From an uncultured delta proteobacterium (GTDB lineage: Bacteria; Desulfobacterota; Desulfuromonadia; Desulfuromonadales; JACZKF01): a DNA stretch of 64,000 nt. Below the pieces are notes generated by a model, which saw only the letters and a program-made list of their open reading frames with translations, was not told the origin of the DNA and searched no databases. The position numbers and the translations under genes are program-made. Shown here in pieces: positions 10,176 through 26,231 of this stretch (positions within the stretch are counted from its first letter, which is position 1; each line of letters opens with the position of its first letter). The DNA lies in assembly GCA_963816395.1 (NCBI GenBank), contig CAWFKQ010000007.1:387738-451737 (forward strand), given 5' to 3'.

Positions 10176-11075
10176 TCACGCCAGTTTCTCGGCCCCGAGA
10201 TTGTCGAGCAGTTTCCGCAGTTTCGCCATGTTCTCCGGTTTGCACCGGGTGTTCGGCCGGATCGGTTCGCCGACCTCAAAACCGAGCAGCCGCATGTAAT
10301 CCTTGGTGACCACCGGGAAACTCCCCAGGTTGTACGCCATGCGCATCGGGGCCAGACGATATTGGGCTTCGCGGGCTCCAGCCAGATCGCCCGCCATGAA
10401 CCGGTCGTAGATCTCGACGACCAGTTTCGGGACGATATTGGCCGAGGAGGCCACGGTGCCGACGCCCCCGTACGCCAGGGTGCTCAAAATCAGGATGTCG
10501 CGACCGGCAATGACTTTGAAGTCCCGGTTCCTGGTGCGGCGGATGAATTCGGCGGTCAATGTCATGTCGCCGCTGCTCTCCTTTACCCCGACGATATTCG
10601 GAATCTCGGCCAGCCGTTCGATCAGGTTTGCCGAAATGCCGCAGCGCATGCGGTCGGGGTTGTTGTAGAGCAGCACCGGCAGCGAGGTGGCCTCGGCAAC
10701 GGTCCTGAAATGCTGGTAGAGTTCCTCGTCATTGGGGCTGAGGAACATCGGGTGCAGAACGGAGACCGCCTGCGCCTGCTGCTGCTCGGCCCAGCGGGCC
10801 CAGCGCACGCATTCCCGGGTGGTGATATCGGCAATGCCGACGTAGACCGGGACCCGCCCTCTGGCCTGGTCGATGGTGATAGCCGCTGCCCGCTCCTGCT
10901 CTTCCCGCTGCAGACCGAAAAATTCACCGTTACTGCCGAGGGACAGGATTCCGTGTACCCCGCCGGCAACGATGTGATCAACGATCTGGCGCAGGGACTT
11001 TTCAATCACCCGCTCTTCGGCATCGACCGGGGTGACGATCGGCGGGATGACGCCGCGCACAAAACTTGTGTCCAT
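10176..11075 (-). CDS. DapA/HBPHA-family class I aldolase or dehydratase (KdgD-like or keto-deoxy-glucarate aldolase candidate)
   Basis: 299 aa with the family pattern IPPIVTP...GVHGILSLGSNGEFFGL...PVLLYNNP...VGVKESSGD. Located between gudD and garR. Confidence 0.75.
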   Translation of the reverse strand: MDTSFVRGVIPPIVTPVDAEERVIEKSLRQIVDHIVAGGVHGILSLGSNGEFFGLQREEQERAAAITIDQARGRVPVYVGIADITTRECVRWARWAEQQQAQAVSVLHPMFLSPNDEELYQHFRTVAEATSLPVLLYNNPDRMRCGISANLIERLAEIPNIVGVKESSGDMTLTAEFIRRTRNRDFKVIAGRDILILSTLAYGGVGTVASSANIVPKLVVEIYDRFMAGDLAGAREAQYRLAPMRMAYNLGSFPVVTKDYMRLLGFEVGEPIRPNTRCKPENMAKLRKLLDNLGAEKLA

Positions 11076-11110
11076 GGGTATTTCCCCTTTCTGCGAGTCC
11101 TCGCCGTCCG

Positions 11111-12461
11111 TCAGCGAACCATGCAGGGGCGCTTGTTGTCGAAGGCCCAGCCTGGAATCAGATACTGCATGGCCGCTGCATCATCGCGTCCCCCCAGCCC
11201 CTTGGACCAGTAGAGGTGGTTGGCCTCTTCAATCGCATCCATGTCGATCTCGACACCCAGGCCGGGCCGCTCGGGAACGGAGATCGGTCCTCCGACGATC
11301 TTGAAGCGGATTCCTGGTCAGGTGCTGTCCGTCCTGCCAGATCCAGTGGGTATCGATGGCGGTGATTTTACCGGGCGCGGCGGCGGCGACATGGGTGTAC
11401 ATGGCCAGGGAAATGTCGAAGTGGTTGTTGGAATGCGACCCCCAGGTCAACCCCCACTCGCGGCACATCTGCGCCACCCGCACCGATCCCTGCATGGTCC
11501 AGAAGTGCGGGTCGGCCAGGGGGATGTCGACGGAATGAAGCTGGATGGCGTGCCCCATCTGGCGCCAATCGGTGGCGATCATGTTGGTCGCGGTCGGCAG
11601 ACCGGTCGCCCGCCGGAATTCGGCCATGACTTCGCGGCCCGAATATCCGTTTTCGGCGCCGCAGGGGTCTTCCGCATATGCCAGTTCCTGGTGCCGCCCC
11701 TTGCACAGCCGGATCGCCTCTGCCAGCGACCAGGCGCCATTGGGGTCGATGGTGATACGCGCCTGGGGAAAACGGCTGGCGAGAGCGATGATCGCTTCAA
11801 TCTCCTCCTCACCTGGCAAAACGCCGCCCTTGAGCTTGAAATCGTTGAAGCCGTAACGCGCATGGGCGGCCTCGGCCAGGCGCACAACGGCTGCCGGGGT
11901 CATCGCCTCCTCGTGGCGCAGCCGCAGCCAGTCATCCTTCGCCTGTGAATCGGCGAGATAGGGCAGATCGGTCTTGTTCCGATTGCCGATGTAAAAAAGG
12001 TAACCGAGGATTTCGACGCTGTCGCGCTGCTGCCCTTCACCCAGCAAAGCAGCCACCGGTACATTGAGGAACTGCCCCAGAAGGTCGAGCAGGGCCGCCT
12101 CCAGGGCGGTCACGGCATGGACCATGACGCGCAGATCGAAGGTCTGCAGCCCGCGCCCGGCTGCATCACGGTCCGCGAACTGCCGGCGCACCGCATTCAG
12201 GGTGTTGTTGTAACGGCCGATTTCCTGATCGATCACCAGCGGGCGCGCCTCTTCGAGGGTCTTGCGGATCGCTTCGCCGCCGGGGACCTCGCCGACTCCG
12301 GTGCGGCCGGAAGAATCCTTCAATATGACGATGTTCCGGGTAAAGAACGGCCCATGGGCGCCGCTGAGGTTGAGCAGCATACTGTCGTGGCCGGCAACCG
12401 GGACGACCAGCATCTCGGTGACGACCGGGGCCCCGGTTATCTTTGCTGAGTGACTCTCCAA
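11111..12461 (-). pseudogene. gudD: Glucarate dehydratase (enolase superfamily), +1 frameshift near the 3' end
   Basis: [38 protein letters not shown] matches E. coli GudD. Likely TTG start at 12461 behind AGGAGG. After ...[15 protein letters not shown] the conserved tail [22 protein letters not shown]...[17 protein letters not shown] continues in the next frame (extra base near 11301-11310), with stop at 11111. Confidence 0.9.
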
Positions 12462-12533
12462 GGGATCCTCCTGCAGAAGTTTTTGCCGCCTGTCCGCACG
12501 CGCCAAAAAGTTGAACGCTAATTATTCTCGGGC

Positions 12534-12562
12534 ATGGTAGCGCTACCATATTTAGCTGTCAA
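12534..12562 (-). promoter_or_regulatory. Sigma70-like promoter (TTGACA-17-TACCAT) overlapped by perfect 16-bp palindrome ATGGTAGCGCTACCAT
   Basis: Minus strand reads ctgTTGACAgctaaatatggtagcgcTACCATgcc. The palindrome at 12534-12549 covers the -10 element and lies about 70 nt upstream of the gudD start. Confidence 0.65.
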
Positions 12563-12691
12563 CAGGATTTTGAACCGCTCTGGACGTTTCTGCAAAAGGC
12601 AGAGGCAATTAGAGGCGGTAGAGAGAACTTCACGTAGAAATTACAGCTAGAAAGGGTATTTTTACCCATCGAAGGGAAGTGCTTAATGCTC

Positions 12692-12721
12692 TTGACTATC
12701 CTATTTGATACCGCTACCATC
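12692..12721 (+). promoter_or_regulatory. Sigma70-like promoter (TTGACT-17-TACCAT) overlapped by operator TGATACCGCTACCATC; probable autoregulation of the LacI-family gene
   Basis: cTTGACTatcctatttgataccgcTACCATcg lies about 50 nt upstream of ATG 12771. The half-site GCTACCAT is identical to the other two operators. Confidence 0.6.
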
Positions 12722-12770
12722 GAAATTGGAAGCCAGCGAAATACTGATTCAGAGAGGATAGATTTTCTCC

Positions 12771-13850
12771 ATGCCCCCAGCAAAAAACGGCAACAACCCC
12801 AAAGGGATCGACTCCGCGCCCGCCAGGCGCCTTGCGGGCAACGGCGGTTCCAGCCGTTCAACCGGCAGCGTCACCCTGGACGATGTCGCCAAGTTGGCCG
12901 GGGTTTCGCCGATTACCGTGTCGCGCGCGCTCAATCACCCCGACAAGGTGGCGCAAAAAACCCTGGACAAAGTCAACCAGGCCATCGCCCGCACCGGTTA
13001 CGTTCCCAACCTGCTGGCCGGCGGCCTGGCCTCCCGGCGCAGCCGGCTGATCGCGGCCATCGTCCCGTCCATCGCCAACTCGGTCTATGCCGAGACGATC
13101 CAGTTCTTCAGCGACAGGCTCAGGGATTCCGGCTACCAGGTGCTGCTGGGCGAGTCCGGATATTCGGAAAACCGGGAGGAATCCCTGATCACCGCCGTTT
13201 TGAGCCGCAGCCCCGATGGGATCTTCCTGACCGGGGTCAACCATTCCATGGCCTGTCGCCGGCTGCTGGCGGCCGCCAACATCCCGGTGGTGGAAACCTG
13301 GGACATCACCCCCACTCCCCTCGATGTCGTCGTCGGCTTTTCCCACGAGCAGCTTGGTCGGGCCGTCGCCGAATACTTGCTGAAAAAAGGCTATCGCCGT
13401 ATAGGCATCGTTTCGGCCGACGATCATCGGGCGCGGATTCGGCAGCAGGCCTTTGTCCAGGCCCTGGCCAAACAGGGAGTCGTCGATGTTGCCATCAGTA
13501 CCGTACCTGTGCCGACCAATTTCAAATTGGGGCGGGACGGGCTGGCCCAGCTGCTGGACGGCGGCTTCGGCGAAGGCGCGGTTTTCTTCAGCTCCGACAC
13601 CCTGGCTCAGGGCGCTCTGGCTGAAGCGCAGTCCCGCGGCCTGGCCATTCCGGACCAGATAGCCATCGTAGGATTCGGCGATCAGCCTTACGCCGCCCAC
13701 ACCTACCCTGCCCTCACCACCGTGCGGTTCGACCGGGCGGCGATCGGTCAGCGCGCCGCCGATGCCTTGCTGACGAGAATCAACGGGGAAACCGTGGAAG
13801 AAAACGTGATCGATGTCGGATTTACCATCGTGGAACGCCAGACGACCTGA
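12771..13850 (+). CDS. LacI-family transcriptional regulator (GntR-of-gluconate type)
   Basis: HTH VTLDDVAKLAGVSPITVSRALNHP followed by a periplasmic-binding-fold effector domain (..IPVVETWD..VGFSHEQ..FFSSDTLAQGAL..). Divergent from gudD. Confidence 0.9.
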   Translation: MPPAKNGNNPKGIDSAPARRLAGNGGSSRSTGSVTLDDVAKLAGVSPITVSRALNHPDKVAQKTLDKVNQAIARTGYVPNLLAGGLASRRSRLIAAIVPSIANSVYAETIQFFSDRLRDSGYQVLLGESGYSENREESLITAVLSRSPDGIFLTGVNHSMACRRLLAAANIPVVETWDITPTPLDVVVGFSHEQLGRAVAEYLLKKGYRRIGIVSADDHRARIRQQAFVQALAKQGVVDVAISTVPVPTNFKLGRDGLAQLLDGGFGEGAVFFSSDTLAQGALAEAQSRGLAIPDQIAIVGFGDQPYAAHTYPALTTVRFDRAAIGQRAADALLTRINGETVEENVIDVGFTIVERQTT

Positions 13851-13966
13851 TATCTCTTTCAGAGCCTGAGCTGCGGCAATTCGCCGGTCATCGCAAGAAA
13901 CCTCCCGGCATTGCCCCGGATCCGCGCCAGCAGTTTTGTTATAAGTGGAGACCTGAGCACTCCTTA

Positions 13967-14092
13967 GTCAACCTTCCTGACGGCATCGCCTACGACCCGG
14001 CAACCGGGCGTCTGCTGGTTACCGGCAAGCGCTGGCCGCGCATTTTCCAGATCGAAATGCCACCTTTGCGAATTCACTTCCAAGGCATTTGA
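13967..14092 (+). pseudogene. C-terminal remnant of a glutamine cyclotransferase (glutaminyl cyclase)-like gene
   Basis: A 42-codon frame VNLPDGIAYDPATGRLLVTGKRWPRIFQIEMPPLRIHFQGI* resembles the conserved C-terminus (NGIAYD...L.VTGK.WP.LFEI) of that family. There is no upstream ORF; stops are present immediately 5'. Confidence 0.45.
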
Positions 14093-14100
14093 TCGGGGGC

Positions 14101-15330
14101 CTATGACTTGAGAGCCTCGGCCAGGAGTTCCACCGGGTGCATGACCTGAATTGACTCGTCGTTCAAATTCCCGCGGATTTGCAGGCGGCATCCGGTGCAT
14201 CCGGAAGTTACTATGCCGGCCCCGGTATTCTTGATTGAGGTAATCTTTTTCGAGGTAATGCCCGAGGATATGTCCGGATGCTGCAGCTGAAAGGAGCCGC
14301 CCCCTCCGCAGCAGGCATCCGCCCCGGCCATCTCCACGAACTCGAGGCCGGGAATCTGCTTTAGGATGGCGCGGGGTTCATCCTTAATACTTTGGCTCCG
14401 CAGAAGATGGCAAGGGTCGTGGTAGGTCACGCGTTCATTGATGGGGCGGAGAAATCCTGCAAGATCAAAATCCTGCAGATATTGCGATATGTCCATCACT
14501 TTTGCCGCCAGGGATCGGGCAGCATCCGCATCTTCTCCCATTTCGTCCAGAATAGGGACGTAATCGTTTTTCAAGGCGGCGCCGCATGTGGCACAATCAA
14601 CGACGACGGCATCGACATCCTCGCGGTTGAGAATCGAAACGTTCCTGCGAATATTGTCGATAGCCAACTCCCTGGCGCCGGACAGAAAAATCGGCAGGCT
14701 GCAGCACATCTGATCTTTGGGAATTATGACGTCCACGTCGATACGGTTCAGGATTTTTATGACAGAATGCCCAACGTTCCCGTACAGATAGTTTGTTGCA
14801 CAGCCGGTGAAATAAAGCACTCTGCCTCTGGGGCCGGCCGCCCGGATAATTTCCGGGAACTGATCCCGCAATGGCTTTGCATTCAAGGTGGGGAGCCTGG
14901 CAAGAGACAGGGTTCCGATTTTTACATTCTGGAGGAACAGAGAACGAAGCGGCGTTTCCAGGACCCGACCGAAGAACATGGACAAAGACAAGAGTCGATT
15001 GCTTGCCAGCAGCCTGAAAAGGCCCTGTTTCTGCCAGCTTAGTCCGAATTTTTCAACCAGTTCAGCCCGCACGGCCTTCATCAGACGATCTATCTTGACG
15101 CCACTCGGGCAGGTTACCGTGCAACTTTCGCACAGCAGACAGGTGAACAGGATTTTGTTGAAGTTCGCCGAGAGCTCCAATTGACCTTCCAGCACTTTCT
15201 TGATCAACTGCACCTTGCCACGGGGAGAGCCCCCCTCATAGTTCAGTTGCTTGTAAACCTGGCAGGAGCTCATGCAGGCACCGCATTTATTGCACTTATG
15301 AACCTCTTCTTTCAGCTCGTCGGCTATCAT
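14101..15330 (-). CDS. (Fe-S)-binding oxidoreductase, GlcF/LldE-like (two 4Fe-4S motifs plus CCG cysteine-rich domains)
   Basis: CNKCGACMSSCQVY and CLLCESCTVTCPSG ferredoxin motifs, then CCG-type motifs (..YFTGCATNY.., ..DACCGGGGSF..). Confidence 0.85.
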   Translation of the reverse strand: MIADELKEEVHKCNKCGACMSSCQVYKQLNYEGGSPRGKVQLIKKVLEGQLELSANFNKILFTCLLCESCTVTCPSGVKIDRLMKAVRAELVEKFGLSWQKQGLFRLLASNRLLSLSMFFGRVLETPLRSLFLQNVKIGTLSLARLPTLNAKPLRDQFPEIIRAAGPRGRVLYFTGCATNYLYGNVGHSVIKILNRIDVDVIIPKDQMCCSLPIFLSGARELAIDNIRRNVSILNREDVDAVVVDCATCGAALKNDYVPILDEMGEDADAARSLAAKVMDISQYLQDFDLAGFLRPINERVTYHDPCHLLRSQSIKDEPRAILKQIPGLEFVEMAGADACCGGGGSFQLQHPDISSGITSKKITSIKNTGAGIVTSGCTGCRLQIRGNLNDESIQVMHPVELLAEALKS

Positions 15331-16712
15331 ACGGCATGCTCCAGGAAACTTCCCGGATTCAAAATCCCCTTGGGATCAAAAGCGTCTTTCAATGATCGCA
15401 TCATCTTCAGGCGGACCTCGCCGAGCTGCTTGGGCAAATACTTCGCTTTATAGATGCCAATCCCATGCTCGCCCGAGACCGTGCCCCCCACGGAAAGGAC
15501 ATAATCCACCAGCTCGTCCTTAGCCATCCCAACTCGCTTCATTTCCTCTTCATCTCGTTGATCGCAGAGAAAAAATGGGTGAAAATTCCCGTCGCCCGCG
15601 TGTGCCAGGACTGCCGTCTGCACGCTGTATCGTTCTCCGACTTCGAGTATTTTCTTTATGGCATCGGTCAGAAAACCCACTGGCACGGTACTGTCTTCAA
15701 CGATGCACGTCGGGCGCACTCTGCCCATGGCGCCCGCAACAGAGCGCCTGGCAGCCCAGAGTTGTTCATTTTCCTTATCGGAACTCGACAGGTGGACCTC
15801 TCTTGCCCCATGCGCCCGGCAGAATTCTGCCACCAGGGCGGACTGCCTTTCTACAGTATCCGGATCGCCGTCCACATCGATGAGCAGGATCGCCTCGGCA
15901 TCCAGGGGAAGTCCCATGTGAGCAAAATCCTCTACGGCCTTTATGACCGTTTTTTCCATGAGCTCGAGCGTCGCCGGTATGATCCCGGCTTCGAAAATCT
16001 TGGCTACCGTGGTCCCGGCGTCGTCGAGACGATCATAGATGGCCTCAAGGGTACGCCTTGCCTTGGGTTTTGGCAGCAGGCGGACCGTTACCCTGGTCAC
16101 CAGCGCCAACGTCCCTTCCGATCCACAGAGCAAGCGGGTAAGATCATAACCAGCCACATCCTTGCAGGTCACGGTTCCTGTTTTCATCACCTCGCCGGAA
16201 GGCAACACCACCTCCAGTCCCAGAAGGTAATCCCTGGTGACTCCATACTTTATTCCCCGCATCCCGCCAGCGTTCGTCATGACGGTGCCGGCAATGGTGG
16301 CAACGGCAACACTGCCTGGATCGGGAGGGTAAAAGAGGTCCAGGCCATCCACGGCTTTCTGGAGTTCGGCAACGACCACCCCCGGCTCCAGGATGGCATA
16401 TCGGTTGGCAGCATTGATTTCAAGAATTCTGTTCATCATGGAAAAACATATTATGATGCCGCCCTCTTTAGCCAACGAACCTGCCGTCATGCATGTTCCG
16501 GAGCCACGGGGGGTAACTGATATGCCGTGTGTGGCGGCTATTGTCATGATCCCTGATACTTCTTCGGTTGTTTTGGGAAAGAGGACTGCTTCCGGAAGAA
16601 ACTCCCGCAGGTATCCATCATAAGAGTAGGTCACGAGATCTTCTGCGGTGGTCTTGCACCGCTCTTCACCGACAACAGAAATAAGCATGTCCAGGATTTC
16701 TTGTGACAGCAT
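15327..16712 (-). CDS. FAD-linked oxidase, GlcD/D-lactate dehydrogenase family
   Basis: 461 aa with FAD-binding-4 and FAD-oxidase C-terminal patterns (..VTPRGSGTCMTAGS.., ..GTVSGEHGIGIYKAKYL.., FDPKGILNPG). 4-nt overlap with the GlcF-like gene. Confidence 0.9.
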   Translation of the reverse strand: MLSQEILDMLISVVGEERCKTTAEDLVTYSYDGYLREFLPEAVLFPKTTEEVSGIMTIAATHGISVTPRGSGTCMTAGSLAKEGGIIICFSMMNRILEINAANRYAILEPGVVVAELQKAVDGLDLFYPPDPGSVAVATIAGTVMTNAGGMRGIKYGVTRDYLLGLEVVLPSGEVMKTGTVTCKDVAGYDLTRLLCGSEGTLALVTRVTVRLLPKPKARRTLEAIYDRLDDAGTTVAKIFEAGIIPATLELMEKTVIKAVEDFAHMGLPLDAEAILLIDVDGDPDTVERQSALVAEFCRAHGAREVHLSSSDKENEQLWAARRSVAGAMGRVRPTCIVEDSTVPVGFLTDAIKKILEVGERYSVQTAVLAHAGDGNFHPFFLCDQRDEEEMKRVGMAKDELVDYVLSVGGTVSGEHGIGIYKAKYLPKQLGEVRLKMMRSLKDAFDPKGILNPGSFLEHAV

Positions 16713-16733
16713 GGGTCGTTACCTCGCTTGAAA

Positions 16734-17799
16734 TTATCCTTGAATACATCCTGCCAACATCTGACGGCTGAGACCCACCGCTGTGCCACACAACATCAGC
16801 TCCTCCAGAGTTGCATCTTCCACCGCAATTCCCCCGTTCCCGACGTTCCGCACTTTTATTTCGCTCCGGGTCGCCTGCCACCATGACATCGAGATCCACC
16901 GGTCTGGATTCTTTCATGTAACGAACGACAGCATCGATTTCCGCTTCCATCCACCGGTGGTCAACAAATCGCTTGGGATCAACCAGAAACGTCAGCATGT
17001 TGTTTATGATGCCCCCCAGCCGGGGGGTTTCGGGCTGGATGGTGCCTCCCCCCGTGAGGACGCCGGCAAGCAGCTCGCAAAAAAACGCCAGGCCATACCC
17101 TTTATGTTCTCCCAGAGGAAGGAAGGCCCCGCGCGGTTCCTGGAAGATGACCCGAGGATCGGTTGTCGGCTCCCCCTGGGAATCCAGAAGCAGCCCGGGC
17201 GCAAGCTGCTCTCCCCGGTTCATGGCTACCCGCGCTTTGCCGAGGGCAATTTTGCTGGTAGCCATGTCCAGGATGACGGCAGGAGTCTCAGCCGTCGCCG
17301 GTAGAGCCATACAAAGCGGGTTGGTAGACAGGCGGGCCTCCCGGCTGCCAAAAGGAGCCACGAGCGGAGCATGGTCAATGACATTGACGAAATGCAACGA
17401 GACCAGACCGGCGGCAGCCGCCTGCTCGCCATATGTGCCGACTCTTCCGATGTGGTGGGCGTTGCGGAGCGCCATGATCGTCAGGCCGGTGTCACGGCAG
17501 CGCTCAATAGCCGCGTTCATGGCCTCCGTGGCAACCCGCTGGCCATAACCCCGTTGACCGTCAAACACGAGTATCGAGCCGTTGTCACTGACCAGGCTGG
17601 CGGAGGTCCCCGGCTTCAGCAAGCCGGCCGTGAGATTTTTGATGTAGGCAGGCAGCATGCCGGCGCCATGGCTGTCATGTCCACTCAGGTTGGCCCGGAC
17701 AAGATGGTCGGCAACCAGCTCGGATTCATATTCGTCGCTACCACTCTGCCGCAGGATAGATAAGAGCAGACGTTTCAGATTCTGTGCCGTAATGATCAT
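16734..17799 (-). pseudogene. Ldh_2 family (malate / L-lactate / sulfolactate / ureidoglycolate) dehydrogenase, +1 frameshift in a G5/C5 run
   Basis: MIITAQNLKRLL...LSGHDSHGAGMLPAYI...NAHHIGRVGTYGEQAA is typical of Ldh_2. After ...AERRERG the frame changes at 16831-16835 (ccccc). The repaired tail is GIAVEDATLEELMLCGTAVGLSRQMLAGCIQG*, with stop at 16734. The ORF-track tail overlapping glcD is an artefact. Confidence 0.75.
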
Positions 17800-17819
17800 C
17801 GACTTTTCTCCTGGGCTCC

Positions 17820-18732
17820 CTATTCGCGATCTGCGGCGCCATTGGAGCCTTCATATAATTGTTTGCTCCTCGTTTCCCGGGCACATAGTTCGGCCCACGA
17901 CCGATCTGCCGCAGCCTGAATCGCTTCGGTATGCGCAGGCATTATATGACTGAAACGCCCCTGAGTCGCGAGATAGCGCTCCACGGGGAGCCTTTGGGGG
18001 CGATAATTAATCTCGTAACGCAGTCCGTCGAAGATCTCGTACAGCGGGAAGATATTGCTCTCCACACTCAGCCTGGCAACGAGTGGCGCCTCATCCGGGG
18101 CGATTTTCCAGCCGGTGTTGCAGGGGGTCAGCAGGTGAATGAAGCGGGTGCCGCGCATCTTTCTTGGCTTTTTCGACCTTGGCCATGAGGTCCTCGGGAA
18201 AAGCGATCGAGGCGGTGGCAGCGTAGGGGATCCGATGGGCGGCCATGATTTCCATGATCTGCTTTTTGTTCCTGGTATTACCGGTGGGGGTGGTGCCGGT
18301 CCAGCTGTATTTGGGCGTGGACGACGACACCTGAACGCCGGTATTCATGTAGGCTTCGTTGTCCAGGCAGACATAGATGAAGTCCTCATTCCGGTCCGCC
18401 GCTCCGGAGAGTGCCTGGAGCCCGATGTCGAAGGTGCCGCCGTCACCGGCAAAGGCCAGCACCGTGACGTCGTCCACACCCTGCCGTTTCAGGGCGGCGG
18501 ATATCCCGGCCGCGGAGGGCGCCGCGGTCTCGAAGGCGGAATGGAAGCTCGGCACCCCCAGAGAGGTATTGGGAAAGGGGCCGGCGATAATCGCCGCGCA
18601 TGAGGGTACCACCACGACCACCGCCTTAAAGCCCAGGGCCTTGAGTACTATCCGCATGCCCATGGCGTAACCGCAGCCGGGACAGGCGGCGTGGCCGGGG
18701 CGAAGCACGTCTTTTGTCGTATCGTTATTCAC
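17820..18732 (-). pseudogene. 2-oxoacid:ferredoxin oxidoreductase beta (TPP-binding) subunit, +1 frameshift
   Basis: ORF 18091..18732 (..ACPGCGYAMG..AFAGDGGTFDIGLQALSGA..CLDNEAYMNTG..) continues as ORF 17820..18158 (MRGTRFIHLLTPCNTGW...). The junction is at AAGAAAGATGCGC (about 18155-18166). Confidence 0.85.
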
Positions 18733-19901
18733 TGGGCGCTCCCTTCTGCCGCGGCGTCGTCAACCCAGATCGGCTGGTCCACGAAAAATTCTCTGGTCAG
18801 CGCGTCCTGCGCCACCCACTCGATCAGCTGCGGGTTCACATCGGTGCCGCCGATGCCGGCCAGGTAGCCCTGGATCTTTGGATGCCCGGGAGAATTTACC
18901 AGGGCTGCCTTGATCTCGGAGCAGAAGATGCCCTCCCGACCGAGGGAGATATTGCGTTCGAGCACGGCGACACGCGGGGCCTTGTCGAGAACCATCCGTA
19001 AGGCCTTGACCGGGAAGGGCCGGAAAAGTCGCAGCTTGCACAGGCCCACCTGCAGCCCCCGGGAGCGGAGGGTGGCCAGCGCCACCCGGGCCGTAGAGGT
19101 AATGGTGGCGGTGGTCACAAGGATCAGGTCGGCACCCTCGCATTCGACCGCTTCCACGATCCCGTAACTCCGGCCGAATGTTTGCCCGTAGTCGCTGTCC
19201 ACCCGTTCCACCACTGCAAGAGCATGTTCCATCGCCTCCGAGGCGAGCCGCCGGAAGTCCCGGTACTGCTTGGCGCTGACCACTGCATTCGAGAATCCGG
19301 GATTGGCAAGGTCAAAACGGCGGGGGAGTCTGGGCGGCTGCAGCCATTCATCGACCTGCACCGGTTCCGGCACCTCGGTCGGCTCCATGAAATGGGAGAT
19401 AAAGTTGGCTTCCAGCACTACCATGACCGGGAGCATGAGCTCCTCCGCGATTTTGAAGGCCTGGACGGTTGTATCCAGGGCTTCCTGGTTGTTCTCGCAG
19501 TAGAGCTGCAGCCAGCCGGTGTCACGCTGAGACAGGGAGTCGGTCTGGTCGCTCCAGAAGGCCCAGGGGGCCGCAAGTGATCGATTCACCACTGCCATGA
19601 CCACCGCAGTGCGGGACCCGGCCGCAAAGTGAAGCATCTCGTGCATGAGCGCCAACCCCTGTGAGGAGGTGGCAGTGAACGTGCGCACCCCGGTCAGCGA
19701 GGCCGACAGGCAGGTGGCCATGGCCGAATGCTCGGATTCGACCTTTACCATGGTACCGCCCAGCTCGCCTCCCGCGTCCCAGTCCGAGAGCTGCTCATAG
19801 ATCGGTGTCTGGGGCGTGATGGGGTAGGCTGCCACGACATCGGGCCGGCAGAGCCTGACCGCTTCGGCCACAGCGTGGTTTCCGCTGATGAATTTTCTCA
19901 T
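18729..19901 (-). CDS. 2-oxoacid:ferredoxin oxidoreductase alpha subunit
   Basis: Trimmed to MRKFISGNHAVAEAVRLCRPDVVAAYPITPQT (ATG 19901), a typical PorA/VorA N-terminus. 4-nt overlaps with both neighbours. Confidence 0.9.
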   Translation of the reverse strand: MRKFISGNHAVAEAVRLCRPDVVAAYPITPQTPIYEQLSDWDAGGELGGTMVKVESEHSAMATCLSASLTGVRTFTATSSQGLALMHEMLHFAAGSRTAVVMAVVNRSLAAPWAFWSDQTDSLSQRDTGWLQLYCENNQEALDTTVQAFKIAEELMLPVMVVLEANFISHFMEPTEVPEPVQVDEWLQPPRLPRRFDLANPGFSNAVVSAKQYRDFRRLASEAMEHALAVVERVDSDYGQTFGRSYGIVEAVECEGADLILVTTATITSTARVALATLRSRGLQVGLCKLRLFRPFPVKALRMVLDKAPRVAVLERNISLGREGIFCSEIKAALVNSPGHPKIQGYLAGIGGTDVNPQLIEWVAQDALTREFFVDQPIWVDDAAAEGSAQ

Positions 19902-21578
19902 GGTTCGTCTCCCATCGTTACAACGCCCCGGACGCAGACTGCCGCACAGGCGCCGCATCCTTTGCAATGATCCGGGTCGCATTCATAGGCGGTCTTCCCG
20001 TTTGTTTGTCCCATGGATACTTCCGGGCAAAAGGTCGCGCAGAGATCGCAGCCGATACACGTTCCACAGTAAAAACATCGTCCGGCTTCCGCTGCCGCTT
20101 CATGCTCAGCCAATCCTCCGACCACCTCCTGAAACCCGCTCACTCGCAGCTCGGCAGGCAGGTTCGGAGGGTTCTGAGGCGAAGTTGCAACAGCGGTGAG
20201 ATAGGAGTAATCATTGATTTCGGCGGTGACACCCGGGGCCCGACTTGGTCCGGGCCGGAACAGTTCATGGATGGAGAAGCTCTCTCCAGCACCAGCAAAA
20301 GCATCGGCGACAGAGTCGGTTCTTCCGGTCAGATCGAGGTGGATCGCCATGGCGGCCCGCTTGCCGGATGCCATGGCGTCAACCACCGTGGCACGCAGCT
20401 GTCCGGCGTCTCCGGCCACGTACAGTCCTCGTCCTGACGGTCCGTCCCTGCCGATCGGCGGCGAGGCGGCCACCTTCCACATCCACTCGGCTGTAAAGCA
20501 ATGATGCTCCCAGGGACTGGCCGATTGCCGTAATCACCACATCACAGGGGAAATCGCCCTTGCTTTCGGATCCCGGTGCAGCCGTGCAACGAACCGCTCC
20601 GACCCTCCCATCCCCCCCCACAAACGCAACCGGGTGCGCTGGGGTCCGGTGCACGCCTTCCTCTTCGGCCTCCAGGACCTCATCATCTGAAGCAGGCAGG
20701 GCTTCCAGATCGGGACGGTAGAGAATAGATACCTTCGCCGCCCCCTTGCGCACGGCCACTCTGGCTGCATCTATGGCGGTGTTGCCTCCCCCGATGACAA
20801 TCACGCGTCGTCCCTTGACCCGTGCCTGCAGGGCGTCATCCAGCAGAAAATCCAGTCCGGGCCAAACGCCTTCCAACTCCTCGCCCGGAATCCCCATGGG
20901 TGTGGGAGCCCAGGTCCCCGTGGCCAGCAATACCGCCCGGTGGGAACCGAGCAGCTGCTCCAACCCGGCCTGATCCACGGGCTGATTAGTGACCGCCTCA
21001 ATATCCAGCGTCAGAATACGCTCGAGGTCCCGATTTAAACTCTCTTCCGGCAGGCGGTAGCCCGGGATCCCCCACCGCAGCAGGCCGCCCAGGCGGTCAC
21101 GAGCCTCAAGGAGGCTCACCGGGTGCCCCATGCGAGCCAGGTGGTAGGCAGCTGCCAAACCGGCCGGACCGGAGCCGATCACCGCCACCGGGAGTCCTCT
21201 GCCGGCAGCGGTCAACATCTCGGGACGAGCGGAGCCGAGATCGGAAACCGCACGCTCCAGGGCGCGAATCTGTACCGAGCCATCATGCTCGGTGCGGTTA
21301 CACTCGCCCTGGCAGGCGTGATTGCAGACGCGACCGCACACGCCCGGCAATGGGCTCTCTTCCAGAAAAGCGGCCAGGGCGCCGTCATAATCCCCTTCCG
21401 CGGCCTTGCACATGGCGGCAGCAATGTTGTTTACCGTCGGGCAGGCAATTCTGCACGGCGAATTCTTCTCTTCGAACACGGGGCGGCGGCGCGACCATGA
21501 ACCGGTCTTGAACGCCTCGGTGGAGAGCCTCGATAGCGGGATGATCGCTTGGGGGTCCAGAAATTTGTGGTAACGCAT
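19898..21578 (-). pseudogene. GltD-like NAD(P)H-dependent FAD oxidoreductase fused to a 2x[4Fe-4S] ferredoxin (OFOR delta-like) domain, +1 frameshift
   Basis: ORF 20379..21578 (CGRVCNHACQGECNR; VAVIGSGPAGLAAAYHLARMGH; VIVIGGGNTAIDAAR) continues in ORF 19898..20482 (GRGLYVAGDAG...AMASGKRAA...CFYCGTCIGCDLCATFCP...CKGCGACAAVC). Extra base near 20435-20441; 1680 nt if repaired. Confidence 0.8.
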
Positions 21579-21579
21579 G

Positions 21580-22128
21580 TTACGCAGCCTCCGTGATTTT
21601 GACCGCGTCGAACGCCTGCCGTGCGGCTTCCCGGTTGCCTTGGCTATTCGCAGGGATCGCCTCGATCAGGGCATCGAGCAGGCAATCCAGTTCGGGCTGC
21701 CCCGCCAGCCTGCAGTACGCCCCCAAAATCGTGGTATTGATGATCTTCCCCAAGCCTGCCCTCTGGCTGACCATTGCGGCGTCTATCAACCCGACTCGGA
21801 AGCCGTGTAAATCTCCCAACTTCTCCAGAGGGCGGACGGTGTTGATCAGCAGCGTGTCTCCTGCCTTGAGCAGATTGCGCGCCTCGCCGGCGTCGAACAG
21901 ACTCTCGTCCAGATAGATCAAGGAATTGGGACGTCTGATCTCGCACTTGAGCAACACCTTCTCCCGGTCAACCCGCAGGAACCCGACCACCGGCGCACCC
22001 CGCCTCTCGCCGCCGTAGACCGAATAGCACTGGGGATACATGCCAGCCTTGAAGAACGAAAGGCCCAGCGTACTTGCCGCAACGACAACCCCCTGCCCGC
22101 CCCGGCCGCTTAGCTTGATTTCAAGCAT
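21580..22128 (-). CDS. 2-oxoacid:ferredoxin oxidoreductase gamma subunit
   Basis: MLEIKLSGRGGQGVVVAASTLG... is a typical PorG/VorC N-terminus; 182 aa. Confidence 0.9.
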   Translation of the reverse strand: MLEIKLSGRGGQGVVVAASTLGLSFFKAGMYPQCYSVYGGERRGAPVVGFLRVDREKVLLKCEIRRPNSLIYLDESLFDAGEARNLLKAGDTLLINTVRPLEKLGDLHGFRVGLIDAAMVSQRAGLGKIINTTILGAYCRLAGQPELDCLLDALIEAIPANSQGNREAARQAFDAVKITEAA

Positions 22129-22167
22129 CTTTCCTCCTCTAGGGTTGCTCTTTACTAAATTGCCAAT

Positions 22168-22193
22168 CTGGGGTACTGTATCCTGTACCCCAG
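22168..22193. promoter_or_regulatory. Inverted repeat CTGGGGTAC-N8-GTACCCCAG in the divergent promoter region (candidate GntR/FadR-type operator)
   Basis: Perfect 9-bp arms seen directly at 22168-22176 and 22185-22193, between the OFOR gamma start (22128) and the regulator start (22270). Confidence 0.5.
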
Positions 22194-22269
22194 AATTATC
22201 ATGCGATTAAAAGCCTTGTCAACAAAAGTTATAACTTTGTTTTATTTGTTGGGGGTCAGTGGTCGGGAG

Positions 22270-22965
22270 ATGAAAATGATAGAAAAAGATCTGGAGTCAG
22301 CCATAGCGCCGCCTCTCTCGATCCGGGAGCAAGTCTACAAGCGCATCAGCGAGCTGATCTTGAGCGGGCGTATCGCTCCGGCCGAACGCCTGATGGAAAA
22401 CAAACTCTCCAAGCAGCTTGGAGTCTCCCGGACGCCTATCAGAGAAGCTCTTCACGTCCTGGAAATGGAGGGGTTTCTTGAGGCAATTCCCCGGGTCGGG
22501 TACCAGGTTAAAGAGATCGTCTGGGAGGAAGTGGTCGATATATGCGAGATCCGGAAGGTTAACGAGACGCTGGCGGCCTGCTGGGCGATGGAGAAAATCA
22601 CCCCGGAAGAACTGAATGCCCTGCAGAATAATCTGGACCAGGCCGAAGCCGATGTGAAGGGGGGACACCCGAAACGCTTTATCGAACGGGACGTGGCTTT
22701 TCACGATATTCTTGTCCGGGCAAGCGGCAGCCGGCGTCTGGTGGAAATCTGCCAGACCTTGCGCCGGCATATGCTTCTCTACCGCATCGAAAGTATTTAC
22801 GAACCGGAGATGGTGTTGAGAGTCATCGAGGACCATCGCCGCATTCTGGACCGCCTCAGGGCGCACGACGCAGCGGGCATCACGCAGGCGATCGGCGATC
22901 ACCTCGACCATGTGAAACGTGAGGTGCTCCATTATGCGTTCGAGAAAAAAGCCGCGGTTCGATGA
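22270..22965 (+). CDS. GntR-family (FadR/FCD subfamily) transcriptional regulator
   Basis: Trimmed to MKMIEKD (ATG 22270). wHTH ..ERLMENKLSKQLGVSRTPIREALHVLEMEGFLEAIPRVGYQV.. followed by an all-helical FCD-like domain. Confidence 0.9.
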   Translation: MKMIEKDLESAIAPPLSIREQVYKRISELILSGRIAPAERLMENKLSKQLGVSRTPIREALHVLEMEGFLEAIPRVGYQVKEIVWEEVVDICEIRKVNETLAACWAMEKITPEELNALQNNLDQAEADVKGGHPKRFIERDVAFHDILVRASGSRRLVEICQTLRRHMLLYRIESIYEPEMVLRVIEDHRRILDRLRAHDAAGITQAIGDHLDHVKREVLHYAFEKKAAVR

Positions 22966-23624: not shown

Positions 23625-24200
23625 TCAATTTGCCGGTGACTGCCGGGATGGGTGGTTTTCGTCTTCTTCCCATTTAGCTGGGTTGTCGACGATGTATTGC
23701 CGGATACCGTTCAGTTCCCGGTCGTCGCGGATGATCCGTTCGTAATAGTTGCGCTGCCAGACCGGCGCGCCCGGGTTGTCGCGGGATTGGTTGATGCGTT
23801 TCGCAGAATTCATCTTGAGATAACCAATGATCTTCGGCAGGGTCATGTTGCGGCGGTTCCGTAGGGGCAATTCATGAATTGCCCCTACACCCTGACCCAA
23901 ACTGGGCGATGCGTGACTCGTCCCGAGGGTATCGTTGATCACAATGATCCCGTGGGTATGGTTCGGCATAACAACGAAAGCATCCATCTCTATGCCCGGG
24001 TACCTCTGCGGCAACGACCGCCAGACCGTATCGACAACCCACCCGGCCTCATTCAACCGCATCGTCCCGTCCACGACATCCCCAAACAGACATTCCCGCC
24101 CGGCCGTGCAGATGGTCACGAAACATGCACCGACGCTGCTGTAATCGTGATTGCGCAACCGGATGGAGCGCCGGTGATGGATGTCCGGGCTGAATGTCAT
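23625..24200 (-). CDS. REP-associated tyrosine transposase (RAYT; IS200/IS605 Y1 HUH family)
   Basis: 191 aa with HUH motif VMPNHTHGIIVI and catalytic-Tyr region PVWQRNYYERIIRDDRE. Flanked by REP palindromes. Confidence 0.85.
   Translation of the reverse strand: MTFSPDIHHRRSIRLRNHDYSSVGACFVTICTAGRECLFGDVVDGTMRLNEAGWVVDTVWRSLPQRYPGIEMDAFVVMPNHTHGIIVINDTLGTSHASPSLGQGVGAIHELPLRNRRNMTLPKIIGYLKMNSAKRINQSRDNPGAPVWQRNYYERIIRDDRELNGIRQYIVDNPAKWEEDENHPSRQSPAN
23861..23888. repeat. Perfect 28-bp palindrome GTAGGGGCAATTCATGAATTGCCCCTAC inside the RAYT coding sequence
   Basis: Verified self-complementary by hand. It encodes VGAIHELPLR in the RAYT frame and belongs to the same sequence family as the flanking REPs. 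Confidence 0.85.
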
Positions 24201-24212
24201 GATTCCCCTCCA

Positions 24213-24240
24213 TAGGGGTACGGCGCGCCATGCCCCCTAC
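24213..24240. repeat. REP-like variant hairpin 5' of the RAYT gene
   Basis: TAGGGGTACGGCGCGCCATGCCCCCTAC has GGGG/CCCC-terminated imperfect palindrome ends with a different core, 13 nt upstream of the RAYT start. Confidence 0.5.
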
Positions 24241-24290
24241 TATGTCGGCGTTTTGCCGCCAGCACCGCATCCCAACAATGATTTTCAACG

Positions 24291-24323
24291 TTCTTCCTTC
24301 TGCATTCTTCCTTCTTCCTTGCC
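24291..24323. repeat. CT-rich tandem heptads (TTCTTCC)n immediately 3' of parE
   Basis: ttcttccttc tgc attcttccttcttccttgcc. Nearly identical to 24978-25011 on the other side of the TA cassette. Confidence 0.7.
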
Positions 24324-24324
24324 T

Positions 24325-24624
24325 TCATGGCATTTTCAACAGCCGCTCGCTGCGCCACACCCGCACAATCGAAATTCGCTCGGTGCCGATGCGGTAGACG
24401 ACCCGAAACGGCGGAAGCAGCAGCTCGCGCACCGCAGACAGCCCGAATTCGGGAACAATGCGGCCGCTTTCCGGGAACTCGGCCAATTGCTCCACCTGGG
24501 CGAAGATCTCCGCAACGAAACGCGCCCCGATTTCGGGCACGTCCTGCTCGACGTACCAGGCACGGAGCGCTTCGAGATCGACCAGAGCCGATTCGGCAAA
24601 CTCGACGGATTTCCTTTTGCCCAT
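24325..24624 (-). CDS. parE: ParE/RelE-superfamily type II toxin
   Basis: 99 aa: ..ALVDLEALRAWYVEQD.....IVPEFGLSAVRELLLPPFRVVYRIGTERISIVRVWRSERLL. Lies 4 nt downstream of a Phd/YefM gene. Confidence 0.8.
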   Translation of the reverse strand: MGKRKSVEFAESALVDLEALRAWYVEQDVPEIGARFVAEIFAQVEQLAEFPESGRIVPEFGLSAVRELLLPPFRVVYRIGTERISIVRVWRSERLLKMP

Positions 24625-24628
24625 GACG

Positions 24629-24907
24629 TCAGTCCAGGCCGAGGCGCTTTTTGGCGTCGGCCAAGCTGAGCGTGCGCCCTTCTTCGACGTCCATCAACCC
24701 CTGCACCACCGCCCGGAGAAACTCCCTCTCCTCGGCCTCGGCCTCGTAGTCCTTGACCGACTGCACCACCGCCACCCCCCGCCCGCGGCTGGTGAGCAGA
24801 ACAGGACGGTGGGTCTTGTCCACCTGGGAAATGACCTTCCCCGGATTGACCTTCAGGTCGGTGACCGGCACGACGTCCTCGGAAAAGACCGGATTCGTTT
24901 TCATCAT
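24629..24907 (-). CDS. Phd/YefM-family type II antitoxin
   Basis: 92 aa: VVPVTDLKVNPGKVISQVDKTHRPVLLTSRGRGVAVVQSVKDYE... is a typical Phd/YefM N-terminal domain. Confidence 0.8.
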   Translation of the reverse strand: MMKTNPVFSEDVVPVTDLKVNPGKVISQVDKTHRPVLLTSRGRGVAVVQSVKDYEAEAEEREFLRAVVQGLMDVEEGRTLSLADAKKRLGLD

Positions 24908-24925
24908 CCACCTCCTCAGGGGCTG

Positions 24926-24941
24926 TTATCTGACCAGATAA
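24926..24941. promoter_or_regulatory. Inverted repeat TTATCTG-AC-CAGATAA upstream of the antitoxin gene (candidate TA autoregulatory operator)
   Basis: 7-bp perfect arms 19 nt upstream of ATG 24907. The minus strand reads gcTATTATctggtcagataacagcccctGAGGAGGtggatgATG. Confidence 0.5.
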
Positions 24942-24977
24942 TAGCACCAATCAAACGACCATTCCAGGGGGCCGTTT

Positions 24978-25011
24978 ATTCTTCCTTCTTCCTTCCGCCT
25001 TCTTCCTTGCC
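24978..25011. repeat. CT-rich tandem heptads (TTCTTCC)n 5' of the TA cassette
   Basis: attcttccttcttcctt ccgcc ttcttccttgcc. Direct repeat of 24291-24323. Confidence 0.7.
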
Positions 25012-25093
25012 CATCAAACGATATCTTCGAAGGTTGATGTTCTTCGACGACGCCTCTCCACTATCCCCCTCCCTGGAAAACAAAGGCTGGTGT

Positions 25094-25732
25094 TTAGCCA
25101 ACAACCACCTGCGGCATATATCCAGCGGCAATCGCGCGCACTATCGAGCGTGGAGTGAGAACGGTCACCTTCTGCCCCTTAAAGAGCGGCACCGGCACGT
25201 CGCCGCCTCCCACTTCAGGCCGCCAGACATGCAGAAATCCGCCCCATTTCAGACAGGCGGTTTCGGGCGCCTCGGGGGAGACAACGAAAACCCCGTCCGG
25301 CAGGTCGTCGATATTCGCCTCGAAGGTCACCTTCTCCCGGCCGCGGGTCACCCGTTCCCGGTGGAGGATACGGTCGATTTCAGCGATGGGTGCGTTTTCC
25401 GGAAGACCGAAATCAGAGTTCCCCTTGTGCCAGGCGGCGACGAACCGCTTGAAATCCTCCCGACGGCATTCGGCGCAGGGCCGATGGCCTGCAGCCAGGG
25501 CGGTGGCCTCGTCACGGAAGAAAAGCTCGGTGTAATTGCCGGGGGTGAACACTTTCCGTTCCAGCTTCCCCGGCACCTCCAGAAGGCAGGTTACCCAGTG
25601 CTGGTGGGTCCAGCGCTTGGCGGTCAGGTTCCCGTCGGAGTCGTGGAGGATGCCGCGGTTTCCCATGAAGGTGCCGCGGGCGGGAGTAGCGATTAGATCG
25701 CCGAAGGGGGTGACGCGGTTTTGGCGGGGCAT
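25094..25732 (-). CDS. Conserved hypothetical protein with central Ada-like Zn-binding motif
   Basis: 212 aa: MPRQNRVTPFGDLIATPARGTFMGNRGILHD... with ELFFRDEATALAAGHRPCAECRR. This resembles the F..eeeA..aGfRPCkrCrP pattern of the Ada N-terminal Zn domain. Function unknown. Confidence 0.6.
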   Translation of the reverse strand: MPRQNRVTPFGDLIATPARGTFMGNRGILHDSDGNLTAKRWTHQHWVTCLLEVPGKLERKVFTPGNYTELFFRDEATALAAGHRPCAECRREDFKRFVAAWHKGNSDFGLPENAPIAEIDRILHRERVTRGREKVTFEANIDDLPDGVFVVSPEAPETACLKWGGFLHVWRPEVGGGDVPVPLFKGQKVTVLTPRSIVRAIAAGYMPQVVVG

Positions 25733-26006
25733 GTGGAGATCTTTCCCTTGCCCATTCCGTCAGAGGTGGCCCCGGTTATTAGGACAGGTCGGCGGCGGGA
25801 ATAAGGTGGGAAGCCTTCATGGTTATGCCGCCAGTTGGAGAGCCGGGCCAGCGTAGCCGGGCCGGGGTTTTTGCCAATATGCCTCATCCGGGGTTCTGTT
25901 GGGGGTTTAATGGGGACGCCCCTTAGTTTATAAGTTTCTGACAGAGGACAAGATACTTATTATCGGGATGGAAATTGTAACTTGGGGAAAGACTAATAAT
26001 TGGAGA

Positions 26007-26231
26007 TCAATCCTCTTTAAGAGTGTCTTCAAGTGTCAAACCATGAGTTGCCTTGTAGCACTGTCGATATAGTTTAAGCCAGTATTCTTTGTTCTTTGAA
26101 TCCCGATCTAGTGAACCGAAGTTATCAATATGTTTCATTAATTCTAGCGCTACTCGGCTCTTTGAATCGGAAACTACCTCAACAGGAGATGAAATTTTTT
26201 GATCAGCCATCTTTAGTTTTCCTTCCGTCAT
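26007..26231 (-). CDS. Hypothetical small protein (ORFan) in a visibly AT-rich segment
   Basis: 74-aa ORF MTEGKLKMADQKISSPVEVV...; the surrounding region (about 25890-26400) has clearly lower GC than the rest of the window. Confidence 0.4.
   Translation of the reverse strand: MTEGKLKMADQKISSPVEVVSDSKSRVALELMKHIDNFGSLDRDSKNKEYWLKLYRQCYKATHGLTLEDTLKED

Follow-up and report, generated by a model that had tools for sequence, protein, structure and literature searches.

We analysed a 64,000-nucleotide stretch of DNA from an uncultured delta proteobacterium (contig CAWFKQ010000007.1 of assembly GCA_963816395.1, forward strand, positions 387,738 to 451,737; hereafter the window), and within it a cluster of seven co-directional genes on the minus strand (14101-22128) with a divergent GntR/FCD regulator gene on the plus strand. 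The locus is a genuine operon. As shown in Table 1, it encodes two 2-hydroxyacid dehydrogenases next to an oxoacid:ferredoxin oxidoreductase (OFOR), the ferredoxin subunit of which is fused to an NAD(P)H flavoprotein. Pfam and NCBIfam searches bore out the domains and positions named in a preliminary description of the same DNA, and the sequence motifs quoted there were found in the translations. The junctions between the genes are tight throughout, with ATGA overlaps and gaps of 1-25 nt, and are therefore compatible with a single transcript. The alpha subunit starts at ATG 19901 and not at 19982, which gives an ATGA overlap with the stop codon of the fusion gene. The gene order proved conserved in relatives: wherever the context was read (L001-L003 and L085), the same eight genes were found in the same order, all intact, with protein identities of 77-90%. 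An Rfam scan of the cluster detected no riboswitch and no other RNA element.

Reading frames, promoter and candidate operator

Three of the seven genes are interrupted in the deposited sequence. In order to place the indels, the cluster DNA was aligned to that of L001 (82% DNA identity), and one surplus base was found in each of the three: near 20429 in the fusion gene, just ahead of a conserved GLYVAGDA motif; near 18159 in the OFOR beta gene, which is split into open reading frames (ORFs) at 18091-18732 and 17820-18158; and, as a G in a G5 run, near 16835 in the Ldh_2 gene, the true C-terminus of which is lost and the corrected stop of which lies at 16734-16736. The fusion gene spans 1681 nt, which is no multiple of 3, and its two ORFs lie in different frames. 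With one base taken out at each site, proteins of 559, 304 and 354 aa were obtained that align end to end with intact relatives. The break in the fusion had been mentioned in the preliminary description, but those in beta and Ldh_2 had been overlooked. Outside the cluster, the C-terminus of glucarate dehydratase (GudD) lies in another frame near 11290 and RecJ is frameshifted near 41960, which brings the total to five frameshifted genes in 64 kb of otherwise well-conserved sequence. Because the unrelated GudD and RecJ are affected too, the three frameshifts of the cluster are most likely assembly indel errors and not signs of operon decay.

Table 1. Features of the operon and its control region (positions in the window)
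Feature	Position	Strand	Pfam domains or remark
OFOR gamma (PorC-like), 182 aa	21580-22128	-	POR
Flavoprotein ORF of the fusion, 399 aa	20379-21578	-	Fer4_20 + Pyr_redox_2
Ferredoxin ORF of the fusion, 194 aa, 2x[4Fe-4S]	19898-20482	-	Fer4 dicluster
Repaired fusion, 559 aa, GltD/NfnB-like flavoprotein::PorD-like ferredoxin	19898-21578	-	linker of ~90 aa
OFOR alpha (PorA/VorA-like), 390 aa	18729-19901	-	POR_N + PFOR_II
OFOR beta (PorB/VorB-like, TPP-binding), repaired 304 aa	17820-18732	-	TPP_enzyme_C (upstream ORF)
Ldh_2-family NAD(P)-dependent 2-hydroxyacid dehydrogenase (YbiC-like), repaired 354 aa	16734-17799 (ORF as deposited 16666-17799)	-	Ldh_2
GlcD-like FAD-linked D-2-hydroxyacid dehydrogenase, 461 aa	15327-16712	-	FAD_binding_4 + FAD-oxidase_C
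GlcF-like Fe-S protein, 2x[4Fe-4S] + two CCG domains, 409 aa	14101-15330	-	CCG (two stretches) + Fer4_8
GntR + FCD regulator, 231 aa	22270-22965	+	GntR + FCD
Sigma-70-type promoter of the operon, TTGACA-16 nt-GATAAT	22195-22222	-
Candidate operator, perfect 10-bp inverted repeat	22167-22194		directly downstream of the -10 box

The regulator is 83% identical to that of L001, and GntR/FCD homologues also flank the OFOR module in L004, L005, L006 and L084. Its start had been placed at 22201, which is probably too far upstream. ATG 22270, preceded by GGGAG, is the most likely start, because the operon promoter sits inside the ORF as read earlier and because the regulators of relatives are 229-232 aa long. 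The promoter agrees with the consensus at 11 of 12 positions, is the best of four promoter-like sites in 13800-22400, and carries at its -35 box a block, TTGTTGACA, that is conserved in L001 and L085. The adjoining inverted repeat reads TCTGGGGTAC-N8-GTACCCCAGA; both of its arms are invariant in L001 and L085, while the remaining intergenic region has diverged. Promoter and palindrome together have the classical layout of a repressor that blocks the start of transcription. We infer that the palindrome, which overlaps the promoter, is the operator of the GntR/FCD protein, and that this repressor would leave the DNA on binding the acid.

The flavoprotein-ferredoxin fusion and its spread

The GltD/NfnB-like module of the fusion is present with its Fer4_20 domain, the FAD motif GxGxxG and the NAD(P) motif GGGNxAxD, and in alignments its N-terminal domain retains six invariant cysteines and one glutamate, as expected for two more clusters. 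The ferredoxin domain carries the motifs CxxCxxCxxxCP and CxxCxxCxxxCV, and residues 506-557 are matched by the NCBIfam model PorD_Arch at 42.5 bits, below its 120-bit cut-off. A separate porD-like gene was looked for in the cluster and none was found; the delta-type domain occurs there only as the C-terminus of the flavoprotein. The fusion thus fills the delta slot of the usual gamma-delta-alpha-beta order, in the place of PorD to which it had been assigned from the start. A full-length NCBIfam model of 566 positions, NF009410 (PRK12771), called only "NAD(P)-binding protein", matches the fusion over positions 25-565 with 426 bits and a missed cut-off of 516.

Among solved chains, the flavoprotein module matched 4ylf_B, 5jca_L and 6s6s_G at E-values of 1e-44 to 1e-53, and the searches against solved structures returned no OFOR for the flavoprotein. 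An AlphaFold2 model was built for P0003, a protein 78% identical to the repaired fusion that served as its stand-in (pLDDT 84, pTM 0.86). The solved structures most similar to this model were the GltD-like subunits of NfnABC (9bov, 9n5u) and StnABC (8oh5), over ~615 columns, followed by NfnB, Xfn, GltD and DPD over ~430 columns. In each of these structures, Fe-S clusters form a chain to which the FAD/NAD(P)H site is connected. The loop that contacts the coenzyme reads mostly YRR across the family, and Leu/Pro-Glu in L004, L005, L008, L018 and L081.

With the repaired fusion as query, 6,959 proteins were found at E<=1e-10. The best full-length matches are 552-605 aa long with 96-100% query coverage, nine of them at 75-81% identity. 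When representatives of 50%-identity clusters were searched exhaustively, 2,913 matches at E<=1e-30 were obtained, the best 150 of which are mostly 540-610 aa long and match end to end. Since the relatives at 75-81% identity encode one uninterrupted protein of 552-572 aa, the fusion is genuine for the family; in this assembly the 559-aa protein described earlier is represented by two ORFs.

Linkage was scanned by tblastn with the window proteins in 83 loci, 80 from named organisms and three on contigs of one close relative. The fusion gene directly adjoins OFOR gamma/alpha/beta genes in 81 of these, the other two being cut by a contig end, and gene tables of two more relative contigs show the same adjacency. 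Two gene orders were observed. The order of the window, gamma-fusion-alpha-beta, is that of Desulfobacterota, Syntrophales, Gemmatimonadota, Planctomycetota and others, and gamma-alpha-beta-fusion is that of Proteobacteria, Actinomycetes (Gleimia, Varibaculum) and a Pelagibacteraceae metagenome-assembled genome (MAG). Larger natural fusions also occur (P0165, P0176, P0198, P0232, P0245), either as single polypeptides of ~755 aa that join POR-gamma, flavoprotein and ferredoxin, or as polypeptides of 1,100-1,190 aa in which an indolepyruvate:ferredoxin oxidoreductase (IOR)-type part (POR_N + TPP_C) precedes flavoprotein and ferredoxin. The adjacency in 81 of 83 loci and the natural fusions to gamma or IOR-type subunits are strong comparative evidence that the flavoprotein is physically a component of the OFOR enzyme, and they lend strong support to the earlier proposal that 2-oxoacid oxidation is wired directly to NAD(P)+.

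The rarity that the preliminary description had implied did not stand: the family is very large, is mentioned in the literature on DsrL (PMC7596348) and has its full-length NCBIfam model, and proteins of this type are already named in some JGI records. The architecture is therefore widespread and previously noticed, and the locus is an unremarkable representative of a type of enzyme that has been little studied. A review of Nfn, one of Fe-S flavoenzymes and one of flavin-based bifurcation make no mention of OFOR-linked GltD-like proteins. L011 (14208-16983) and L013 (15586-16827) each have one more GltD-like gene, a few kb downstream of their OFOR module; in L011 it stands just behind a PyrK/NfnA-like Fe-S gene, and the pair resembles NfnAB. 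These second genes could matter for electron routing there.

Candidate substrates, proposed electron path and rival explanations

The gamma subunit scored 123.8 bits against NCBIfam TIGR02175, above the cut-off of 81.1. Alpha and beta are Por/Vor-like and fall under every curated cut-off. Alpha, with 403 bits against PorA_Arch (cut-off 550), has as its closest solved chain 9bt4_B of a four-subunit pyruvate:ferredoxin oxidoreductase (PFOR; E 3.9e-83), and contains a YPITP motif (read as YPITPQT) and, at ~19540-19590, an unusual pocket loop, NRSLAAPWAFWSDQTD. Repaired beta scored 352 bits with the VorB-type model NF008818 and 331 bits with PorB (cut-off 405), both below cut-off, and carries CxxC-24-C...C ligands for one [4Fe-4S] cluster as well as the GDG...N motif for thiamine pyrophosphate (TPP). 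A free delta subunit serving an external ferredoxin, as in four-subunit Por/Vor enzymes, is absent. Nor do the subunits correspond to a pyruvate-specific PFOR: the cut-offs are missed, and the pocket loop reads AAPWAFWSDQ where 9bt4_B has APINIWNDH. Across the family, PINIW occurs in the true four-subunit PFOR and in every gamma-alpha-beta-fusion locus except one with PANIW, (P/G)WNIW in most gamma-fusion-alpha-beta loci, and PW(A/S)F(W/G) in the window (PWAFW), L001-L006, L008, L018, L081 and L084. These classes may mark different substrates. Because PWAFW differs from the PINIW of true pyruvate enzymes, a 2-oxoacid other than pyruvate appears at least as likely a substrate as pyruvate.

The two dehydrogenase systems are of different types. 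Repaired Ldh_2 passes NF007504 for YbiC-type malate/lactate/ureidoglycolate dehydrogenases (411 bits, cut-off 336), and its closest solved chain is 2g8y_A (E 1.2e-82). The GlcD-like protein stays below the cut-off of TIGR00387 glcD (475 against 567.9 bits); among solved chains it came closest to 9qgz_A, a glycolate oxidase (E 1.6e-97), and to 7qh2_C, which is LctD from the lactate dehydrogenase/Etf complex (E 3.6e-87). The GlcF-like protein, which is presumed to be the electron-transfer partner of the GlcD-like enzyme, found its best NCBIfam match in the C-terminal half of LdhH, the large subunit of a quinone-dependent L-lactate dehydrogenase, and LdhH, TfrB and GlpC matched it better than GlcF. 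With GlcD under its equivalog cut-off, no GlcE gene and a GlcF-like protein nearer to LdhH/TfrB/GlpC, a GlcDEF glycolate oxidase was rejected.

That these dehydrogenases feed the OFOR, as first proposed, is supported by relatives. The alpha and beta subunits of L084 are 69% and 74% identical to those of the window, and the pocket loop of alpha agrees as well. In that locus, gamma-fusion-alpha-beta is preceded by a GntR/FCD gene and followed by a gene of the lactate/malate dehydrogenase (LDH/MDH) family (13853-14779), which replaces Ldh_2 and GlcD/GlcF. The product of this gene passes neither curated model and has Trp at the position that determines substrate specificity, where lactate dehydrogenases have Gln and malate dehydrogenases Arg. 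In L009 an LDH/MDH-family gene lies upstream of the module, and in L007 GlcD/GlcF genes lie directly upstream of it; GlcD/GlcF stand beside the module only in the window's clade and L007, and in none of the other 79 loci scanned. The dehydrogenases beside the OFOR in L084, L009 and L007 support a sequence of reactions from 2-hydroxyacid through 2-oxoacid to acyl-CoA. Other relatives have TRAP organic-acid transporters, an ADP-forming acyl-CoA synthetase or an aldehyde dehydrogenase near the module, and the operon of L001 lies near IOR, ApbA/PanE-like, CoA-transferase-like and DctP genes. The missed cut-offs, the pocket loop, the Trp of L084 and the neighbours in L001 together hint that the 2-oxoacid may be bulkier than pyruvate and hydrophobic, either branched-chain or aromatic. 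We give even chances to aliphatic or aromatic 2-hydroxyacids other than lactate; the pair lactate/pyruvate is possible, and glycolate/glyoxylate or others are rather doubtful.

On this basis, we consider it fairly probable that the locus is a repressor-controlled catabolic operon, in which a 2-hydroxyacid is converted to a 2-oxoacid and then to acyl-CoA and CO2, with electrons passing through Fe-S clusters and FAD to NAD(P)+. The NAD(P)-dependent Ldh_2 enzyme and the GlcD-like/GlcF-like pair would both carry out the first step, probably on opposite enantiomers; such stereo-complementarity, with D taken by GlcD/GlcF and L by Ldh_2, is plausible. The four-part Por/Vor-type OFOR, consisting of gamma, alpha, beta and the fused delta domain, would then decarboxylate the 2-oxoacid oxidatively. 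Electrons are predicted to run from TPP to the [4Fe-4S] cluster of beta, through the two delta-type clusters and the two N-terminal clusters to FAD, and finally to NAD(P)+, so that the two electrons would not be released on free ferredoxin. The activity expected from gene linkage and domain fusions is thus that of a 2-oxoacid:NAD(P)+ oxidoreductase, presumably non-bifurcating.

Several points weigh against this assignment. The transfer of electrons at ~-500 mV to NAD(P)+ is wasteful, and this would not be expected of an anaerobe-like lineage; the literature yielded no biochemistry, enzymology or solved structure for this exact architecture. By its profile score the fusion is placed in a sister group of the curated NF009410 family. 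The YRR loop that determines NADP through its 2'-phosphate is YRPD in the window's clade, so that either NADP or NAD may be preferred. Homology links the GltD-like FAD with the FAD at which NfnB bifurcates, and a more complex electron routing is possible. Finally, of the five frameshifts of the window three fall inside the 8 kb of this cluster, so that real decay retains some probability.

The homology to NfnB is the starting point for a confurcating or bifurcating complex, in which the FAD would merge low-potential electrons from the 2-oxoacid with high-potential electrons from GlcD/GlcF onto NAD(P)+, or do the reverse. The best structural matches, in the bifurcating NfnABC and StnABC, point the same way, as does the presence of LctD, from a confurcating lactate dehydrogenase/Etf complex, among the closest solved relatives of GlcD; on general thermodynamic grounds, the averaged half-reaction potentials would suit NAD(P)+. 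Such a complex would be a soluble machine that takes a 2-hydroxyacid to acyl-CoA with only NAD(P)H made, and a new solution to the uphill oxidation of 2-hydroxyacids. We nevertheless regard it as highly improbable, and the preliminary description's suggestion of such a site found no support: the cluster has no NfnA-, Etf- or HydB-like partner, a second electron input of any kind is absent from most loci, GlcD/GlcF being confined to the window's clade and L007, and no evidence points to contact between GlcF and the fusion. A non-bifurcating enzyme is favoured because stand-alone Fer4_20 + Pyr_redox_2 proteins, homologous to the N-terminal module and likewise partnerless, catalyse plain ferredoxin:NADP+ oxidoreduction without bifurcation (PMC12221290), and because an NfnA-like partner is missing. 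The operon might also run in the reductive direction, as an NAD(P)H-driven 2-oxoacid synthase whose product the dehydrogenases would turn into a 2-hydroxyacid for fermentation or storage, OFORs being reversible in principle. The closest characterised relative of Ldh_2, E. coli YbiC, which is reportedly a 2-oxoacid reductase, would agree with this direction. NAD(P)H at ~-320 mV, however, cannot drive carboxylation at ~-500 mV without an input of energy, for which no gene is encoded, GlcD-type enzymes are oxidative, and the GntR/FCD repressor, together with the TRAP transporters and acyl-CoA synthetase of relatives, is typical of catabolic uptake. We therefore hold reductive operation to be very unlikely.

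The catabolic reading that we prefer also presupposes that the frameshifts are errors. Should they be real, the cluster would be dead here and yet functional in relatives. In favour of such decay, the breaks in three of the seven genes lie within 8 kb, the cluster adjoins a transposase-like gene, a toxin-antitoxin pair and a tRNA, and P0010, from NCBI and ENA sources, is exactly the truncated 399-aa ORF, so the break is present in the deposited assembly. Apart from three single-base insertions, however, there are no stop codons, deletions or other damage, and the proteins retain their 77-90% identity to those of L001. GudD and RecJ point to assembly error, and in L007, another long-contig MAG, the genes at 5775-8374 for GlcF and for a GlcD 75% identical to that of the window are each broken up over several frames, with damage of the same kind. 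Decay is accordingly unlikely, though it is given some weight. For two independent genes that only seem fused, one encoding a GltD-like NAD(P)H oxidoreductase on its own and the next a normal PorD, speak the two ORFs of the deposited window. These ORFs share 104 nt that are read in different frames, the second has no start context of its own, and joining them restores the conserved GLYVAGDA flavin motif. Dozens of listed relatives at 44-81% identity moreover have one protein of 552-605 aa that covers 96-100% of the repaired query; intact single proteins refute two genes for the family, and for the window itself we find them hardly conceivable.

OFORs are usually viewed as ferredoxin-dependent. 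In a very large set of them, spread widely over Desulfobacterota, Planctomycetota, Gemmatimonadota, Proteobacteria and Actinomycetes and reaching a Pelagibacteraceae MAG, an integral NAD(P)H flavoprotein takes the place of PorD. Should such enzymes reduce NAD(P)+ directly, metabolic models that assign reduced ferredoxin to every por/vor set would be wrong for the organisms concerned. The family merits biochemical study; the locus itself contributes little more than a clear example with 2-hydroxyacid dehydrogenases and a well-defined promoter/operator.

Directly left of the operon lies a glucarate/galactarate utilisation cluster (3263-13850), with galactarate dehydratase, a TctA transporter, a GarR-like reductase, an enzyme of the dihydrodipicolinate synthase (DHDPS) family, glucarate dehydratase and a LacI regulator. 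A functional tie between the two was rejected: L001-L003 and L085 keep the eight genes, and in L001, where both flanks are visible, the neighbours differ. To the right of the regulator (23625-26879) we found an IS200/Y1-transposase-like ORF, a Phd/ParE toxin-antitoxin pair and tRNA-Leu(taa), and this region may be the edge of an acquired one. The G+C content is ~0.54-0.55 at 14-16 kb and 22-24 kb, against ~0.61 elsewhere. Farther left, two tandem c-di-GMP-I-GGC riboswitch aptamers on the minus strand (2481-2571 and 2700-2813; 68.6 and 66 bits, gathering score 59) precede an ORF at 3-2474 that encodes more than 820 aa with a DUF11 repeat and runs off the window.

Comparison with known systems

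The GlcD-like flavoenzyme with its CCG Fe-S partner resembles the two-subunit GlcD-like/Fe-S D-lactate dehydrogenases. The lactate-utilisation operon of Desulfovibrio encodes a pyruvate:ferredoxin oxidoreductase as well; the operon of the window differs in that its OFOR would be NAD(P)-linked and in that permease, pta and ack genes are absent.

Among OFORs that reduce pyridine nucleotides, the five-subunit phenylglyoxylate:NAD+ oxidoreductase PadEFGHI (Hirsch et al. 1998) is comparable in its use of NAD+ and in the position of PadF (~100 aa) between gamma and alpha. PadF has the size of a delta subunit and was rejected as a flavoprotein, and the Pad delta protein is separate, in contrast to the fused domain of the window. 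The window's gamma, alpha and beta subunits scored 91, 270 and 225 bits against the NCBIfam models for PadE, PadG and PadI, far under the cut-offs of 300-700. A 2-oxoglutarate:NADP+ oxidoreductase of Azoarcus evansii reportedly reduces NADP+ directly, judging by the title under which Ebenau-Jehle, Boll and Fuchs described it in 2003. It reportedly has an extra flavoprotein subunit as well, which might belong to the fusion family. This enzyme is specific for 2-oxoglutarate, whereas the OFOR of the window is of the Por/Vor type.

The Fer4_20 + Pyr_redox_2 module is shared with proteins of the NfnB/GltD/Cac_0764 type. The window protein differs from these by its built-in ferredoxin domain, by YRPD in place of YRR and by the lack of an NfnA or GltB partner. 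An NfnAB transhydrogenase was rejected since no nfnA gene, for a PyrK-like [2Fe-2S] flavoprotein, lies in or beside the cluster, and AadN of Rhodopseudomonas, a fused NfnAB, was set aside for its other architecture. With PorD of four-subunit OFORs (e.g. 9bt4) the fusion shares the position in gamma-delta-alpha-beta and the Por/Vor-like partner subunits, but PorD stands free, with 85-100 aa, whereas in the window the delta domain forms the C-terminus of a 559-aa flavoprotein.

In domain order the fusion agrees with DsrL, an Fe-S flavoprotein of dissimilatory sulfur metabolism that acts as an NAD(P)H:acceptor oxidoreductase and has a linker of ~100 aa (PMC7596348). Both proteins begin with two [4Fe-4S] clusters, continue with FAD and NAD(P) Rossmann domains and, beyond the linker, end in a 2x[4Fe-4S] ferredoxin domain. 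DsrL partners with the sulfite reductase DsrAB, whereas the fusion of the window lies between OFOR gamma and alpha. An identity with DsrL was rejected, since, contrary to the criteria set for DsrL, the gene is linked to an OFOR and no dsrAB occurs among the annotated ORFs of the window. The DsrL study itself found look-alikes beside pyruvate/ketoisovalerate:ferredoxin oxidoreductase genes and left them out (PMC7596348).

Close kin are the proteins described by NF009410, which have the same full-length architecture. In L026 (Sulfurisoma sediminicola, 4229-6913), the gamma-alpha-beta-fusion genes are divergent from aceE (pyruvate dehydrogenase E1, 1528 bits), and such a neighbourhood is in keeping with an NAD(P)-linked enzyme specific for pyruvate in this clade. 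Loci of this order were not equated with KorABC, as the Por-like genes that L026 has beside aceE are four separate ones. The OFOR-linked proteins of Proteobacteria and Actinomycetes pass the NF009410 cut-off, that of L026 with 766 bits, whereas the window protein and relatives of the Desulfobacterota type reach 426-480 bits and are encoded in the order gamma-fusion-alpha-beta.

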